From contig NZ_CP010904.1 in assembly GCF_001017655.1 (NCBI RefSeq), positions 30,001 through 62,000 on the forward strand: a stretch of 32,000 bases of DNA, read 5' to 3'. Every line of letters begins with the position of its first letter. Positions within the stretch are counted from its first letter, which is position 1. This DNA is from Kiritimatiella glycovorans (GTDB taxonomy: Bacteria > Verrucomicrobiota > Kiritimatiellia > Kiritimatiellales > Kiritimatiellaceae). The notes beneath the pieces were generated by a model that was given only the letters and a program-made list of their open reading frames with translations, ran no database searches and was not told the DNA's origin. The translations under genes were made by a program, and so were the position numbers. Positions 576 through 15,764 of this stretch are shown piece after piece.

Positions 576-1571
576 ATGCTTCTTTCGCGGCCAGCGGTAA
601 ACTCAGGGATTCTGCGGCGCGCCGGGGTGTGTGCGGTCCTCCTGGCGGCGCTGTGTGCCGGTTCCGTTTCGGCGGATGTCCTCGTACTCAAGAACGGCGA
701 CCGGCTCAAGGGGCAGTTCGTCAAAAAAGACGCGGGCGTCATTCATTTCCGTTCGGGGATGCTCGGCCTGCTTCAGGTGCCGCAGGCCAAGGTGCGGAAT
801 GTCATCCGCCCCAAACCGGAACCCAAGCCGAAGCCGCAGGCGAAAAAGGCCCCGCCGAAGCCGGAAAAGAAGTTCGAATGGCGCAAATATTTCTCCGGTC
901 GTCTCGGCGGCGGCTACACGCTGCGCGACTCGGATTACGAGCAGCGTCAGGGGGCCTCCAGTAATGTGCGGCGCATCAAGCGTGAGGACGAGATATTCCG
1001 GCTCTATGGGAATGTCGACTTCGACTACAAGAACGAGCACCTCAAGTGGGACCTGAACTACCGCTACATGGAACAGGACGATCTGCGCCGCATCGATTTT
1101 CTCGAACTGTCCCAGCTCTACCGCCACGACGTCGGAAAGAAATGGTTCCTGCAGGAGGAAACGAGTTACCACAGGGATTTCCAGCGGCTGGTGGACCGGG
1201 AGATCTGGCAGACCGTCGGCATCGGCTACCGGTTCTTGGACCAGCCGCGGTTTAAACTCCTTGTTGCGATCGGTCCGGCGTACCAGAACCTGGAACAGGA
1301 GGACGTGGGCAGCACCGAACGGATGCTCTTCGCCGTCGATCAGAATCTCGACTGGCGCACGGAAAAGAACCAGCTCCGCTTTTTTGAACAACTTGAGGTG
1401 AGGGCCAACAGCGACCGGCGGCTCATTACCGCGCGCGCCGGCGTCGACAACCGCATGGTCCAAAACCTCTTTCTGCGCCTCGAATACCGCTACGACTACG
1501 ACAGCATCGTCAACCTCGAGGACCCCTTCCTGCGGAAGATGCTGATCACCAGCGTGAACTACCGGTTCTAG
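576..1571 (+). CDS. Outer-membrane beta-barrel protein, DUF481 (YdiY-like) pattern
   Basis: Signal-like N-terminus (AVLLAALCAGSVSA), VLVLKNGDRLKGQFV motif and a Pro/Lys linker (PKPEPKPKPQAKKAPPKPEKK). The rest is strand-like sequence ending ITSVNYRF, an aromatic C-terminus typical of OM barrels. The family call is from remembered family pattern, not a search. Confidence 0.65.
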   Translation: MLLSRPAVNSGILRRAGVCAVLLAALCAGSVSADVLVLKNGDRLKGQFVKKDAGVIHFRSGMLGLLQVPQAKVRNVIRPKPEPKPKPQAKKAPPKPEKKFEWRKYFSGRLGGGYTLRDSDYEQRQGASSNVRRIKREDEIFRLYGNVDFDYKNEHLKWDLNYRYMEQDDLRRIDFLELSQLYRHDVGKKWFLQEETSYHRDFQRLVDREIWQTVGIGYRFLDQPRFKLLVAIGPAYQNLEQEDVGSTERMLFAVDQNLDWRTEKNQLRFFEQLEVRANSDRRLITARAGVDNRMVQNLFLRLEYRYDYDSIVNLEDPFLRKMLITSVNYRF

Positions 1572-1754
1572 CGTGAATGATGCACCGGCACCCCTTGTCT
1601 GACCTGTAACACACGATGGATACGCGCCTTACGGGGGCCGCCACCGAATCGGCGGTCTTGAGCTTGCTTACAGGGTAGACCAGGCGGGCGACGCGAGGGG
1701 TTCTGTACGTGAACATGGCGCGCACGCGTACGTTTCGGTGCGTTCGGACGTGTG

Positions 1755-1776
1755 AGGGCCCGAAAAGGGCTTTTTT
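1755..1776 (+). terminator. Weak intrinsic terminator downstream of the OMP gene
   Basis: aGGGCCCgaaaaGGGCtttttt: GCCC/GGGC stem, extendable by G-U/A-U pairs, then T6. Repeat copy A begins immediately after the T tract. Confidence 0.35.
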
Positions 1777-1779
1777 GGA

Positions 1780-2270
1780 TTCTTCGCAGATTTTTGTGGT
1801 GGAGCCGTTCGGGGAAGAGGCGGGATGGAAGACGACAAACGTTCGTAGTAGCGCCGCACGCCTGCCCCGGCAGGCCAGGCGCGTGAAAGATAACGGCCCT
1901 TGTCCGCTACGCGGACCTGCGGGCCTACTACGAACGTAAGAGAGAACGCACCATTTCTTTGCCTGTGCTCTTCTCATCCATCTTTGCGATTTCCGGGTAG
2001 GGCGCGCTCTCTCCGCCTTCGGCCCTTTATGCCTTCGGCGGACAGGCTAAGCGCGCCGGTTTTGCGGACGGCCTTCTGCTGTCCGGCAGAATCCCTACCT
2101 TCACATGAAGAGCATGAAGGTGGGTTGAGGGGGGGGGACGAATACTCGCACTCGTACTCGTACTCGGTACGCGTACTCGGAGGATCCCATCCCCCGATTC
2201 AAGGAATTCGAGTACGAGTACGATGTGACGCGAGCGGACTTGCCGCCGCTCACCATAAATTTACGAAGAA
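1780..2270 (+). mobile_element. MITE-like non-coding repeat element, full copy A (about 490 bp)
   Basis: Collinear with the reverse complement of 9536-10045 along its full length; the first 47 nt are identical and the rest differs by scattered substitutions and small indels. Ends TTCTTCGCAGATTTTTGTGGTGGAG / CTCACCATAAATTTACGAAGAA are imperfect inverted repeats. Flanks cttttttgga (1770-1779) and ctttttttga (2271-2280) match 9/10. Track ORFs inside are not frame-conserved between copies. Confidence 0.7.
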
Positions 2271-2373
2271 CTTTTTTTGAGCGCACTCCGTCTATTACGG
2301 CTAACGATGGCGCGTAGGCTGAGGCGTCGTGCCTGCCCACGCGGGGCGGCGGGACGTTTCACCTTACAAAACG

Positions 2374-5342: not shown

Positions 5343-6212
5343 GTGAAGAAGTACGCATTAATAATGATCCTGGCTATTGGGGCTTTTTCAGGCGGCGTCC
5401 ACGCGGATCTCGTCGCAGCCTTCGACGCGAATGGTTCAACGGGCGCCTTCAGCGGCCTGTCCTCCGCGGACGGCGTGTCCGGCCTGAGTTATACGGCGGG
5501 CTCGGGATTGAATAACTACGGATATCTCGGGTCGTGGGCAACGGTAGCCGAATTCAGCCGGGAATCGTTGCTGACCAATGCCCTGGCCGACGACAGCTAT
5601 CTGGAGTTTTCTTTTCAGACGGCCGGCGGCACACAAATCACCGCGCTGGACCAGTTTTACATGGATAATGATATCGTCGTCACCGTCGATAGCGGGGTCA
5701 CAACATTCAAAATGGGCCTGGCTTATGACAATGGATCGGGATCGTTTTCCGAATTGATTTCGGATATTGATCCGCAGGACATCAACGCGGGGATCGACAT
5801 AAGCGGGTTCTCGGCTGCAGACGCCAACTCCACCGTTCGGTTCCGCGTGGGCTTTTATGACGATGTGCGGGATAATCCCCACTCCGCGCTCTATGTGGTC
5901 AACAGCACCCTCGGTGGCGTGGATGATTCGGCGGCTGTTTTCACCGGAACCGTGATCCCCGAACCGGCCACATCCCTGCTTCTCCTTCCCGGCGTAGGCG
6001 GAATTCTCGCATGGCGAAGGCGGCGTTTTGCGCTCAAGGCTTCGGACCCGGATAAAGAGAACCCGGCCGGGGTTCGGAGCCTGTCCGGAGAGCGTCCGCC
6101 CGCGAATGAAACGGCCTGGCTCGAAGCCATCGAGCGCCTGGTCCAGTGGGTGAAACATCTGGACCCGCTGGGCAGCACGCTGCTGGCCATCGACCGAACC
6201 TTCCGGCGCTGA
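5343..6212 (+). CDS. PEP-CTERM sorting-domain protein with an unusual 61-aa extension after the anchor
   Basis: Signal peptide VKKYALIMILAIGAFSGGVHA from GTG 5343 after AGGAAAGGGGA (track start 5322). PEP-CTERM signature VIPEPATSLLLLPGVGGILAWRRRR. A further 61 codons (6027-6209) with G/C-rich third positions precede the stop. Confidence 0.8.
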   Translation: MKKYALIMILAIGAFSGGVHADLVAAFDANGSTGAFSGLSSADGVSGLSYTAGSGLNNYGYLGSWATVAEFSRESLLTNALADDSYLEFSFQTAGGTQITALDQFYMDNDIVVTVDSGVTTFKMGLAYDNGSGSFSELISDIDPQDINAGIDISGFSAADANSTVRFRVGFYDDVRDNPHSALYVVNSTLGGVDDSAAVFTGTVIPEPATSLLLLPGVGGILAWRRRRFALKASDPDKENPAGVRSLSGERPPANETAWLEAIERLVQWVKHLDPLGSTLLAIDRTFRR

Positions 6213-6244
6213 AGTCGAAGGGGATCGCCGGTGAAACCGGGGTC

Positions 6245-6478
6245 GCGAAGATGAATGAGAAGAGCACAGGCAAAGAAATGGTGCGTTCTCTCTCACGCTC
6301 GTAGTAGGTCCGCAGGTCCGCTCAGCGATAAAAGTTCGTAGTAGGCCCGCAGGCCTGCGAAGCAGGGCCAGGGCCGTTATCTTCACGCGCCTGGTCTGCC
6401 GGGGGCAGGCGTACGGCGCTACTACGAACGATATCACGCGCCTTGGCCCTTCGGGCGCTTACGGCGCTGCTACGAACG
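6245..6478 (-). repeat. Partial copy D of the repeat family (hairpin module only, with duplicated arms)
   Basis: gatgaatgagaagagcacaggcaaagaaatggtgcgttctctc... matches 9845-9985 (copy B) and the reverse complement of 1840-1975 (copy A). Both arm motifs (CGYTCGTAGTAGG... and ...GCGCTRCTACGAACG) occur twice, giving nested inverted repeats. No terminal inverted repeats are present. Confidence 0.65.
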
Positions 6479-6599
6479 TCCGGAAGAAAATCCCCGGCGG
6501 CCTGGCGAGAGAAAAACGGGTTGAAGTCACTTCAGCGGACGGAGTGCCGCCGCTGCTTCAGGCGGATATCGAGTCCCTCCCACTTCTGGACCTGATCCT

Positions 6600-6715
6600 C
6601 TTACTCAGGTTTCAGGTTTCAAATTCAAACTCCGAATTTCCCCCTAATTCCTTCTTACTCAGGTTTCAGGTTTCAAATTCAAACTCCAACTCTCCGACTC
6701 TCCCCCTAATTCCTT
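6600..6715. repeat. AT-rich tandem duplication (54 + 62 bp) upstream of nadA
   Basis: Unit cttactcaggtttcaggtttcaaattcaaactcc...cccctaattcctt occurs at 6600-6653 and 6654-6715, differing by one short indel block. Each unit contains an internal aggtttc doublet. Visibly AT-richer than its surroundings. Confidence 0.85.
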
Positions 6716-8910: not shown

Positions 8911-9510
8911 ATGGACTGGGTCTACAACGATACGGTCAAAGATCATTTCATGAACCCGCGCAACGTGCTCATGGACGAGGACGGATTCGGGGAGGACGGC
9001 CGCGGCCTGACCGGCAACGTCAAGTGCGGCGACCAGATGCTGATGCTGATCAAGGTCGATCCGGACGAAGAACGGATCACGGACTGCCGCTGGAAGACCT
9101 ACGGCTGCGCCAGCGCGATTGCGAGCACGTCGATCCTGTCGGAAGTCGTCAAGGGCCTGACGCTCGACGAGGCGTTCAACCTTACCCCGAAGGACATCAC
9201 CGCCCGGCTCGGCGGCCTGCCCGAACACAAGATCCACTGCTCCGTGCTCGGCGACAAGGCGCTGCGCGCGGCGGTCAACGACTACTATCAGCGCACCGGC
9301 CGCCCGGAGAAGGTCCGCGAGGACAAGGCGAAGCTGGTCTGCCAGTGCATGGCGGTGACCGACCACGAGATCGAGGATGCCGTGCTCGAGGGCGTGCGCG
9401 ATTACCAGGCGCTCCAGGAACACACCAAGCTGGGCACCGTATGCGGCCAGTGCCGCGGGGAAGCCGAAAAGCTGATGGGTGCATGCATCGGGAAGCACTT
9501 CGACCACTAA
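8911..9510 (+). CDS. nifU: Fe-S scaffold protein, NifU N-terminal (IscU-like) domain plus BFD-like [2Fe-2S] domain
   Basis: Scaffold cysteines in VKCGDQM, KTYGCASAIAS and HCSVLG. BFD-like CQCMAVTDHEIEDAV...GTVCGQC follows. No C-terminal Nfu domain. Confidence 0.88.
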   Translation: MDWVYNDTVKDHFMNPRNVLMDEDGFGEDGRGLTGNVKCGDQMLMLIKVDPDEERITDCRWKTYGCASAIASTSILSEVVKGLTLDEAFNLTPKDITARLGGLPEHKIHCSVLGDKALRAAVNDYYQRTGRPEKVREDKAKLVCQCMAVTDHEIEDAVLEGVRDYQALQEHTKLGTVCGQCRGEAEKLMGACIGKHFDH

Positions 9511-9512
9511 GG

Positions 9513-9535
9513 CCACAAAAGCGGCCCCTTTGTGG
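9513..9535 (+). terminator. nifU terminator hairpin, separated from its original downstream T tract by repeat copy B
   Basis: CCACAAA-agcggcccc-TTTGTGG lies 2 nt after the nifU stop. Its 3' arm is duplicated at 10047-10057, where the original downstream sequence ccccgattcagttttttc continues. Confidence 0.45.
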
Positions 9536-10045
9536 TTCTACGTAATTTTTTGTGGTGAGGCGACGGGAAATCCGCTCGCGTCCCGTCGTACTCGTACTCA
9601 GCGAAGCGGTACTCGTACTCGAATTCCTTGAATCGGGGGATGGGATCGCGCCTTCGGCGCTCCGAGTACGAGTACGAATTATGTTCACCCCCCCCTCAAC
9701 CAACCTTCATGGCCTTCATGTGAAGGTAGGGATTCTGCCGGACAGCAGAAGGCCGTCCGCAAAAGAGCGGCGCGCTTAGCCTGTCCGCCGAAGGCATAAA
9801 GGGCCGAAGGCGGAGAGATCGCGCCCTACCCGGAAATCGCAAAGATGAATGAGAAGAGCACAGGCAAAGAAATGGTGCGTTCTCTCTTACGTTCGTAGTA
9901 GGCCCGCAGGCCTGCGAAGCAGGGCCAGGGCCGTGATCTTCACGCGCCTGGTCTGCGGGGCAGGCTTACGGCGCTACTACGAACGTTTGTCGTCTCCCAT
10001 CCCGCCTCTTCCCCGAACGGCTCCACCACAAAAATCTGCGAAGAA
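9536..10045 (-). mobile_element. MITE-like non-coding repeat element, full copy B (about 510 bp)
   Basis: Reverse complement aligns with copy A end to end. Termini TTCTACGTAATTTTTTGTGGTGAGG ... CTCCACCACAAAAATCTGCGAAGAA are inverted repeats. Perfect direct duplication CCCCTTTGTGG at 9525-9535 and 10047-10057. Confidence 0.78.
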
Positions 10046-10135
10046 CCCCCTTTGTGGCCCCGATTCAGTTTTTTCTTTATGGCCCCGGCGTCCCCCAGCC
10101 GTTAATGTGGCCCATTGAGGCGGGGGGTGGAACTT

Positions 10136-11218
10136 ATGAGCAGCACATTCGGGACGGTATTCAGGACGACGACATTCGGGGAATCGCACGGACTCGCCGT
10201 AGGCGCGGTTATCGACGGTTGTCCGCCCGGGCTCGCCCTCTCCGAGGCTGACATCCAGCCCCAGCTCACGCGGCGCCGGCCGGGTCAGAGCGCGCTGACC
10301 ACTCCGCGCGACGAGCAGGACCGCGTGCGGATACTCTCCGGCGTGGAGGCGGGGATGACGCTCGGCACGCCGATTGCGCTGGAGGTGATGAATGAGGCCC
10401 AGCGCCCCGGCGATTACCGCGAGCTGCAGTCCGTGCCCCGTCCCTCGCACGCCGATTACACCTACCGGATGAAGTACGGCGTCGCCGCCCGCAGCGGCGG
10501 GGGGCGGGCCAGTGCGCGCGAGACGATCGGCCGTGTGGCCGCCGGGGCCGTGGCGGAAAAGATGCTGCGGGACCGCCGGGGCACGGAGATCGTGGCGTTC
10601 GTAAGCGCAGTCGCCGACGTCGAACTCGAGGGCGAACCGCCCGCCGATCTCTCGCGGGATCGGGTGGATGCCACGCCCGTGCGCTGTCCCGACGCCGGGA
10701 CCGCGGAGCGGATGCGGGAGCGCATCGAGGCGGCAAAGGCCGACGGGGATTCCGTCGGCGGGATCGTCACCTGCGTCTGCCGCGGAATTCAGGCGGGCTG
10801 GGGCGAGCCGATTTTTGACAAGCTCACCGCCATGCTCGGACGCGCCATGCTGTCGATCCCCGCCACGAAGGGAATCGAGATCGGTTCCGGGTTTGCCGGG
10901 ACGCGGATGCGCGGGTCGGAACACAACGACCCGTTCGTCGCCCGCGGCGGGTGCGGACTCGGCACCGCCACCAACCGCAGCGGCGGCATCCAGGGCGGGA
11001 TCAGCAACGGCGAGCCGATCGTATTCCGGGTTGCGTTCAAACCCACCGCCACCATCGGCCGCGCGCAGCACACCGTGGACTACGAGGGAAACGAGGTGGA
11101 GCTGGCCGCGCGGGGGCGCCACGATCCGTGCATCCTGCCGCGCGCCGTCCCGGTGGTCGAAGCGATGGCCGCGCTCGTGCTGGCCGACCTGGCCCTCAGA
11201 CAGGCCGCTCGCGGATAG
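10136..11218 (+). CDS. aroC: Chorismate synthase
   Basis: [28 protein letters not shown] and [18 protein letters not shown]. Start at in-frame ATG 10136. Confidence 0.93.
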
Positions 11219-11232
11219 TCGCGGGACGCCCC

Positions 11233-11532
11233 CTATTCCTCCCCGTCTTCAAGCTCGCGCATGATCCGGTCCGCCGGGGTTTCGAGCTTCTTGTCGCGGT
11301 TGCATTCGGGGCAGGCGGGCACCACGTTGCCCTTCGTGCTCTTCCCGCCGCGGGCGACGGGGACGACGTGGTCCATTGTCAGGCGGCCGGGAGTCAGGGT
11401 CTTTCCGCAGTAATGGCAGCGGCCCTCCGCAATGCGGTTCTTCCACCACGACGTGCGGCGGAGTTCGCGGGCACGTTTGCGCTCGCGGCGCATGTGCTCC
11501 TCGTCGGCGTTGATGTCGAACCAGTCGTCCAT
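11233..11532 (-). CDS. Small HNH endonuclease
   Basis: CHYCGKTLTPGRLTMDHVVPVARGGKSTKGNVVPACPECNRDK is an HNH/zinc-finger core in a 99-aa protein. Confidence 0.85.
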   Translation of the reverse strand: MDDWFDINADEEHMRRERKRARELRRTSWWKNRIAEGRCHYCGKTLTPGRLTMDHVVPVARGGKSTKGNVVPACPECNRDKKLETPADRIMRELEDGEE

Positions 11533-15147: not shown

Positions 15148-15427
15148 CGAGGCCGTCCGGCGGGCGGCGCGGCGCGCGCTCAAGGCCGTGCGCGAGCTTT
15201 GCGATGCGAGGAGGCGGGCCGAGCTGGCGCGATATATTCTCGCCGAGGAAGCGGAACGGCTCCAGCGCATCGAGCGCCGGAGTGATATCGAATCGGAGGC
15301 GCTGGCACTCCATCACGATCTGGAGGCCCTGGTCCGGGATCTCGATACGGCCGTCAACCGCCTGCCCGGTTCGGCGGTGCTGCGCGGATTGGCGTCGTTC
15401 AGGGGTCCCCCGGGGGATAGACCATGA
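15116..15427 (+). CDS. Hypothetical helical or coiled-coil protein (103 aa), stop codon lies inside repeat copy C
   Basis: In-frame ATG 15116 after GGGAGGGG, inside track ORF 14951..15427. Third positions are G/C-rich. Arg/Glu-rich helical sequence RRALKAVRELCDARRRAELARYILAEEAERLQRIERR. The TGA at 15425-15427 falls in the first bases of the repeat. Confidence 0.4.
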   Translation: MATPVYGRMNDEAVRRAARRALKAVRELCDARRRAELARYILAEEAERLQRIERRSDIESEALALHHDLEALVRDLDTAVNRLPGSAVLRGLASFRGPPGDRP

Positions 15428-15657
15428 AGGGCATGAAGGTTGTTTGAGGGGGGACATAATCCGTACTCGAACTCGTACGCGTACTCGGAGCGCCGAAGGC
15501 GCGATCCCCCTCCCCCCTGTTCAAGGAACTCGAGTACGAGTACCGCTTCGCTGAGTACGAGTACGATGTAACGCGAGCGGACTTGCCGCCGCTCACCATA
15601 AAAATTTACGAAGAACTAATTATGTTCATTCCTTCATGCTCTTCATGTCCTTCATGG
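15422..15657 (+). repeat. Rearranged partial copy C of the repeat family (right-hand module with its own inverted termini)
   Basis: 15423-15616 aligns with 2104-2271 of copy A and with the reverse complement of 9535-9719 of copy B (GTACTCG-arm hairpins, ...gctcaccataaaaatttacgaagaac). Positions 15617-15657 are an inverted copy of the catgaag..gcatgaagg..acataat segment, so the unit ends CCATGAAGG...CCTTCATGG. Confidence 0.65.
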
Positions 15658-15764
15658 TGAATCCCATTCTCTCTCCCCCCTTTTGGCTTGCACAAATCTA
15701 ATACATTCAATTAAACCCATGTGAATTGCATTAGGTTTGCATTAGAGCACGGGGGGGGCGGGAA

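Follow-up and report, generated by a model that had tools for sequence, protein, structure and literature searches.

A MITE-like repeat family with an internal REPIN-like hairpin in Kiritimatiella glycovorans

Introduction

Kiritimatiella glycovorans was the first of its phylum to be brought into culture. Between its genes nifU and aroC lies a non-coding segment of 510 bp. Is this segment a mobile element, a mosaic of smaller repeats, a stretch duplicated together with its surroundings, or an RNA gene? The K. glycovorans genome is reported to harbor 75 transposase genes, and its repeats were not described in the genome paper (PMC5148204). An earlier note, made from this DNA alone, had interpreted the segment as a non-autonomous transposable element (MITE) that had entered the terminator hairpin of nifU.

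The window, i.e., the whole 32-kb stretch of DNA analyzed here, is a housekeeping region. It starts with genes for a DUF481 outer-membrane protein, tRNA-Ser, and prmC-like, EamA, DUF2391 and PEP-CTERM proteins, followed by nadA, nifS, nifU and aroC. The order after aroC is a small HNH protein, hisD, hisC, an XRE regulator, redox enzymes, exbB and nusA. Within the window, two tRNAs are the only sequences reaching the Rfam gathering score, and no transposase gene was found.

Results and Discussion

Termini and flanking duplication of the nifU-aroC element

The earlier note had described a segment of 510 bp, a flanking duplication and imperfect inverted ends, and all of these were recovered between nifU and aroC (copy A in Table 1). 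The nifU product carries NifU_N and BFD domains; the stop codon of the gene occupies positions 9508-9510, and aroC extends from 10136 to 11218. The left end of copy A reads TTCTACGTAATTTTTTGTGGTG and the right end, reverse complemented, reads TTCTTCGCAGATTTTTGTGGTG. The arms of this imperfect inverted repeat comprise 24 nt with 83% complementarity. The terminus consensus, (G)TTCTTCG-Y-A-R-ATTTTT-R-TGGTG, spans about 25 bp, and four matches to a 22-nt end motif were counted in the window versus 0.00 expected.

Table 1. Positions of the repeat copies, their termini, flanking duplications and associated features in the 32-kb window.
Feature	Position	Strand	Remarks
Full-length element copy A	9536..10045	+	510 bp, non-coding
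Left terminal inverted repeat, copy A	9536..9560	+	TTCTACGTAATTTTTTGTGGTGAGG
Right terminal inverted repeat, copy A	10021..10045	-	reverse complement TTCTTCGCAGATTTTTGTGGTGGAG
Left target-site duplication, copy A	9525..9535	.	CCCCTTTGTGG; shortened to the 10-mer 9525-9534 when G9535 is counted with the inverted repeat
Right target-site duplication, copy A	10047..10057	.	CCCCTTTGTGG
Target hairpin just 3' of the nifU stop	9511..9535	+	GGCCACAAA / loop / TTTGTGG
T6 tract	10069..10074	+	11 nt after the hairpin before insertion, by reconstruction
REPIN-like hairpin	9888..9987	+	100 nt; two inverted GTAG-headed REP-like units
Full-length copy B	1780..2270	-	491 bp; identity to A 86% over the full length and 94.5% within the right 325 bp
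Copy B duplication, element's left side	2271..2280	.	tcaaaaaaag on the minus strand
Copy B duplication, element's right side	1770..1779	.	tccaaaaaag on the minus strand
Partial copy C	6208..6480	+	element positions ~268-450, 75% identity, no termini
Partial copy D	15423..15615	-	element positions 1-185, 84% identity, left terminus intact
Extra inverted sub-module X	15617..15662	+	AATTATGTTCA...CCTTCATG repeats, outside the left terminus of copy D

The duplication around copy A is perfect over 10-11 bp, as had been claimed, and the boundary of the element is ambiguous by 1 nt. With the boundary given in Table 1, one additional C (position 10046) is located between the right end and the right duplication. 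Alternatively, the preceding G and this C can be given to the inverted repeat (GTTCT...AGAAC), in which case the duplication is the perfect 10-mer CCCCTTTGTG directly abutting both ends. The window has three left junctions (copies A, B and D), each with a G preceding TTCT, and the flank shared by these copies is limited to this G. In a simulation on the window, an exact 11-mer flank repeat with an offset of 0-2 nt around a segment of 400-600 bp was obtained with P ~9e-6.

The duplicated target includes the 3' arm (TTTGTGG, 9529-9535) of a hairpin located 2 nt after the nifU stop, and a T tract follows downstream of the element, both in agreement with the earlier note. In the present sequence, this hairpin is composed of GGCCACAAA at 9511-9519, the loop agcggcccc and the 3' arm, which falls within the left duplication. 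The sequence bears out its designation as a terminator only in part. Reconstruction of the empty site (predicted spacer taaGGCCACAAAagcggccccTTTGTGGCCccgattcagTTTTTT) gives a 9-bp hairpin with -13.3 kcal/mol; its z-score of -0.67 is unexceptional in comparison to shuffled sequences. Moreover, the T-run is 11 nt off, and the terminator scan made no call at this hairpin. The target of copy A is a hairpin, though its status as a terminator is not demonstrable.

Further copies in the window

When the window was searched with the element by sensitive BLASTN, the related sequence, previously said to occur three more times, was found to correspond to one further full copy (B) and two partial copies (C and D), so that two full and two partial copies are present within 32 kb. 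All four are intergenic, and A, B and C are each located just 3' of a co-oriented gene.

Copies A and B are in opposite orientation, 7.3 kb apart and between unrelated genes. Their homology ends exactly at the inverted termini, which are of an identical kind in both copies, and the flanks beyond are unrelated. The flanks of copy B, TCAAAAAAAG and TCCAAAAAAG, directly abut both of its ends and match at nine of ten positions (consensus TC[A/C]AAAAAAG; P ~3e-4 in the same simulation); this duplication has a mismatch and is located within a homopolymer run, a context in which agreement by chance is more readily obtained. The right-side flank is the T-tract of a plus-strand hairpin (GCCCgaaaaGGGC-T6) downstream of the DUF481 gene. 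The earlier note would have been contradicted by a lack of further copies with duplications of their own; copy B combines the same termini with a different 10-bp repeat. Since the flanks differ between the two full copies, a repeat carried by the element itself or a fixed recombination core is excluded. Flanking repeats that differ between copies are a signature of transposition and therefore support the interpretation as a MITE.

Decay or recombination has reduced copies C and D to fragments. For copy C, the BLASTN match covers 6208-6430 and is followed by REP-like units up to 6480; this cluster is located just 3' of the PEP-CTERM protein gene. Between copy C and nadA, a low-GC unit unrelated to the element, TCTTACTCAGGTTTCAGGTTTCAAATTCAAACTCC, was observed in two direct copies (6599-6641 and 6653-6695) that are 93% identical over 43 nt with a spacing of 54 nt.

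A mosaic of palindromic modules

The interior of the element is a mosaic of separately repeated palindromic modules, and modules 1-185 and 268-450 occur apart from each other in copies D and C, respectively. The left module (1-185) is composed of the terminus, a small hairpin differing between A and B/D, arms of (GTACTC)n and (GAGTAC)n, and sub-module X, which holds CCTTCATG repeats. The number of repeats in the GTACTC/GAGTAC arms varies between copies A, B and D. Identities over the left terminus and first hairpin are 78% for A-B, 80% for A-D and 94% for B-D, and those over the GTACTC core are 64%, 82% and 60%, respectively. Relationships between the copies are thus discordant between blocks, which indicates that family members have recombined and exchanged segments. 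The partial copies and the modularity of the interior show that processes beyond transposition of the whole element also spread its parts.

Within the left module, the GTACTC/GAGTAC hexamers are microsatellite-like (2143-2180, 9588-9621, 9663-9677 and 15470-15565). Furthermore, copy D is bracketed by inverted copies of X (15617-15662 versus 15423-15462), with three of the 9-mers outside and two inside. The entire D locus (15415-15670) folds as one hairpin or long palindrome of -110 kcal/mol.

A REPIN-like hairpin inside the element

The right part of the element includes a hairpin formed by two inverted REP-like units, which in copy A occupy 9888-9937 on the plus strand and 9939-9987 on the minus strand. 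Each unit of about 45 nt starts with a GTAG-containing head (CGTTCGTAGTAG) followed by an imperfect palindrome that folds as a two-tier hairpin. In total, eight GTAG-headed units belonging to two subtypes were found in the window, and the head motif CGTTCGTAG(T/C)AG is present in all eight. The outer stem is 100% paired in all seven complete units and covaries, with two pairs that are G-C in one subtype and C-G in the other; the inner stems vary in sequence and keep their pairing. One of these inner stems is a 5-bp hairpin that is preserved by two compensatory changes between A and B. The units form inverted doublets in A and B, and in C one doublet is nested in another: four GTAG-headed units with nested doublets occupy 6290-6480, without the termini of the 510-bp element. 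A covariance model detected no further REP-like units in the window beyond those of A, B and C.

REPs are imperfect palindromes of 20-40 nt with a GTAG tag at one end, and the units of segment 9888-9987 conform to this type, being arranged as an inverted pair with a short spacer. GTAG-tagged REPs and REPINs are built in the same way, from a GTAG head plus palindrome in inverted doublets (PMC3733652, PMC3337134), and the PVC superphylum is known to contain GTAG REPs (PMC3733652). Of the 510 bp of the element, the REP-like units account for only about 100. The element is a mosaic with a REPIN-like hairpin and not a simple deleted IS.

Coding capacity and folding

Open reading frames across the copies range from 40 to 143 aa, differ between copies and are not conserved in frame, and none of those in the element copies has a match in Pfam. 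A six-frame query, a pseudo-protein of 1756 aa assembled from every open stretch of 25 aa or more in copies A and B, gave no match among 5.8 billion proteins. The element folds into many hairpins with a z-score of about -6. Both previous statements, lack of a frame-conserved ORF and abundance of hairpins, are therefore sustained. The z-scores of the two strands are -6.05 and -5.67; both strands fold equally well, and hence the folding points to symmetry in the DNA and not to a strand-specific RNA. In Rfam, no family was assigned to the element at gathering score or at E values up to 10, the best match reaching 17.5 bits versus a threshold of 168. Likewise, promoter and terminator scans gave nothing in or at the element, including no sigma-70-like promoter.

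Some ORFs of 89-143 aa cross the copies into their flanks, namely 1546-1977 (-), 1900-2280 (+) and 9849-10118 (+). They are absent from the protein collection and, if annotated, would be false gene calls. A 17-codon ORF, MNEKSTGKEMVRSLLRS, is open in copies A (9851-9904), B (1981-1928, minus strand) and C (6257-6310), with changes from N to D and from L to S among the copies.

Searches outside the window

In a genome contig collection that excludes the source genome, the 22-nt terminus had no match. An internal 20-mer had 11 matches in the same collection, none extending beyond about 38 nt. Two of these loci were read and represent coding sequence for the Walker-A motif of sigma-54 activators (GTGKEMV), and all 11 were counted as chance. 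These spurious matches arise because the DNA of the MNEKSTGKEMVRSLLRS ORF matches the Walker-A coding sequence of unrelated genomes, a likeness that is probably coincidental. Among metagenome contigs, one exact match to the 22-nt terminus was obtained (Ga0185299_10001140, 5639-5719), with an inverted TTTTTGTGGT 50 nt upstream. It was considered as a relic mini-element and rejected as chance, as it is part of the sequence coding for the conserved N-terminus of an acidobacterial purine-nucleoside phosphorylase, an enzyme with conservation over its whole length in many soil Acidobacteria. No related sequence was found in viral contigs, and BLASTN for distant matches to the element yielded nothing related in plasmid and phage records.

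The AroC protein encoded in the window is 100% identical to the K. glycovorans chorismate synthase, whereas the next best matches, from the nearest relatives, have about 72% identity. No close relatives are thus present in the databases. Furthermore, these relatives do not keep nifU beside aroC, and for this reason a synteny-based search gave no empty site.

Weighing the possible origins

Based on shared termini, copy-specific duplications and lack of coding capacity, the segment is most probably a MITE, i.e., a non-autonomous DNA transposon, with a size of about 490-510 bp that belongs to a K. glycovorans repeat family, as the earlier note had proposed. Its 24-nt inverted termini exceed the minimum of 10-15 bp for a MITE, its duplication differs between the two full copies, and it is small and non-coding (491-510 bp). 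Most likely, the family is an undescribed one with a REPIN-like passenger. Points against this assignment are that only two full copies were available, that the flanks of copy B match imperfectly, that parts of the element also spread separately, that the metagenome, viral, plasmid and phage collections yielded no related sequence, and that the duplication is long: a review gives 2-10 bp for prokaryotic MITEs (PMC11602168), so that 10-11 bp is at the upper edge. Other explanations are much less likely; the combination of common inverted termini with duplications specific to each copy follows from none of them.

One of them regards the segment as a BIME-like mosaic of REP/REPIN units and palindromes. 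Recombination or a REP-associated tyrosine (HUH) transposase would have assembled and dispersed it, instead of cut-and-paste of the entire 510 bp, and the flank repeats would be coincidental. The eight two-tier GTAG units with their covarying outer stem, the inverted doublets that also occur nested and free of termini at 6290-6480, the separate occurrence of the two modules and the presence of GTAG REPs in the PVC superphylum (PMC3733652) all speak for such a mosaic. Nevertheless, HUH/RAYT transposition proceeds without target duplication and does not need terminal inverted repeats, whereas the two full copies are bounded by the same inverted termini of 22-25 nt and flanked by copy-specific repeats, for which the joint chance is of the order of 1e-9. 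Since transposon-type termini and a duplication are foreign to the REP/BIME type and copies A and B have both, and since the REP-like units account for so small a part of the element, this explanation is considered improbable. Palindrome elements derived from IS200/IS605 have neither inverted termini nor a duplication and insert 3' of a fixed tetra- or pentanucleotide; the inverted termini and duplications observed here do not fit this class.

Copies A and B could also be paralogues from segmental duplication or gene conversion, their likeness to a transposon being fortuitous. The window indeed contains only two full copies, and the mosaic relationships of A, B and D reveal recombination acting on the family. 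On the other hand, the A/B homology stops at the termini, the copies are inverted relative to each other at a distance of 7.3 kb among unrelated neighbors, and each has its own flanking repeat, which makes this origin very improbable. According to the least probable explanation, the copies would be large, structured and possibly mobile genes of a non-coding RNA family, and their hairpins would function as RNA helices. The strong fold, the compensatory changes in the 5-bp hairpin, the covarying REP-like stems and the position of A, B and C just downstream of co-oriented genes would suit an RNA. However, the reverse strand folds equally well, as expected for DNA palindromes, and neither an Rfam match even at E values up to 10 nor a predicted sigma-70-like promoter was obtained. 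Moreover, no homologue was found in the genome (source genome excluded), metagenome and viral collections searched, and RNA genes do not characteristically possess terminal inverted repeats plus duplicated targets.

Proposed insertion mechanism and target choice

For the MITE interpretation, we infer mobility from anatomy. A transposase encoded elsewhere in the genome, presumably of the DDE type, would bind the imperfect terminal inverted repeats of about 25 bp and mobilize the element in trans. Insertion would occur via staggered target cuts about 10-11 bp apart, and repair of these cuts would leave the flanking direct repeat. Target choice may be guided by likeness to the inverted-repeat core TTTGTGG, and the 3' ends of neighboring transcripts may be affected.

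Within the 32 kb, TTTGTGG/CCACAAA is present only in the element termini (1793, 9549 and 10032 (-)) and in both arms of the nifU hairpin, the positions being 9519 (-), 9529 and 10051. In the target of copy B, CTTTTTTGGA, a T-run likewise precedes GG. The insertion site of copy A is in the 3' arm of the nifU hairpin, and that of copy B is in the T-tract just 3' of another gene-end hairpin. Because terminus and target have the heptamer in common, the left junction of copy A retains a hairpin with a T6 about 10 nt further on; for the same reason, the terminus (CCACAAA) can pair with the duplication (TTTGTGG) at the right junction, where the original T6 comes next. A target preference is put forward as a hypothesis derived from two sites. 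Site-specific integration at a TTTGTGG core was considered and rejected: the core would sit differently in the junctions, and the flank of copy B differs.

A wider, joint reading would be that the family picks gene-end hairpins resembling its own core (TTTGTGG or T-run-GG), that the junctions rebuild a hairpin plus T-run, and that the REPIN-like passenger is a second, nested mobilization system. This combination is speculative and unlikely. If it were true, insertion would hardly disturb the formation of 3' ends in the flanking genes, and a DDE transposase acting on the whole element and an HUH/RAYT enzyme acting on the doublet would be nested in one repeat.

Relation to known elements and significance

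Target duplications of 10-12 bp are characteristic of groups within the IS4 family (IS231, IS4, ISH8), the ends of which are of the CA/CT type. The element resembles these in the length of its duplication and differs in its termini, which start with (G)TTCTTCG, in a comparison made by description only. With bacterial MITEs such as RUP, NEMIS/Correia, ERIC and Nezha (PMC3733652), it shares small size, lack of coding sequence, terminal inverted repeats of 15-30 bp, target duplication, robust hairpins and an intergenic location beside gene ends. Its size is also within the range of 50-800 bp given for prokaryotic MITEs (PMC11602168). In contrast to most of these families, it has a longer duplication of 10-11 bp and a mosaic interior with a REPIN-like doublet, and searches of Rfam, protein, plasmid, phage, viral and metagenome collections detected no sequence similarity to known MITE families.

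A further counterpart is ISH2 of Halobacterium salinarum, an element of 521 bp, or 531-532 bp including the duplication (PMC7002104). This non-coding element is of nearly equal size and has a duplication of about 10-11 bp, and its host, like K. glycovorans, is an inhabitant of hypersaline environments; it is archaeal with a GC content of about 46%, and its likeness is one of dimensions only. REP/REPIN sequences with RAYTs (PMC3116915, PMC3337134, PMC3733652) correspond to the internal hairpin with its inverted units of about 45 nt and to the clustered and nested units at 6290-6480, and they lack the terminal inverted repeats and duplications of the 510-bp element.

For Kiritimatiella glycovorans, these results provide a first account of the anatomy of a MITE-like family and of REP-like hairpins with GTAG heads; general concepts are left unchanged by them. 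Such repeats mislead gene callers, as exemplified by the ORFs running through the copies, and they mark sites of genome plasticity. Moreover, they can alter the 3' ends of adjoining transcripts, here those of nifS-nifU and aroC.

Additional features around aroC

The nifU-aroC spacer harbors an array of TTT(G/A)TGGCC(CCG)-like motifs at 9511-9519 (-), 10051-10062, 10076-10087 and 10104-10112. It consists of an inverted pair with a 9-nt spacer, a direct copy identical at 12 of 13 positions (CTTTATGGCCCCG) and a weaker one (AATGTGGCC), and could represent regulator-binding sites upstream of aroC instead of a terminator. Immediately 3' of aroC and on the opposite strand, a stand-alone HNH endonuclease ORF of 99 aa was observed at 11233-11532 (-).
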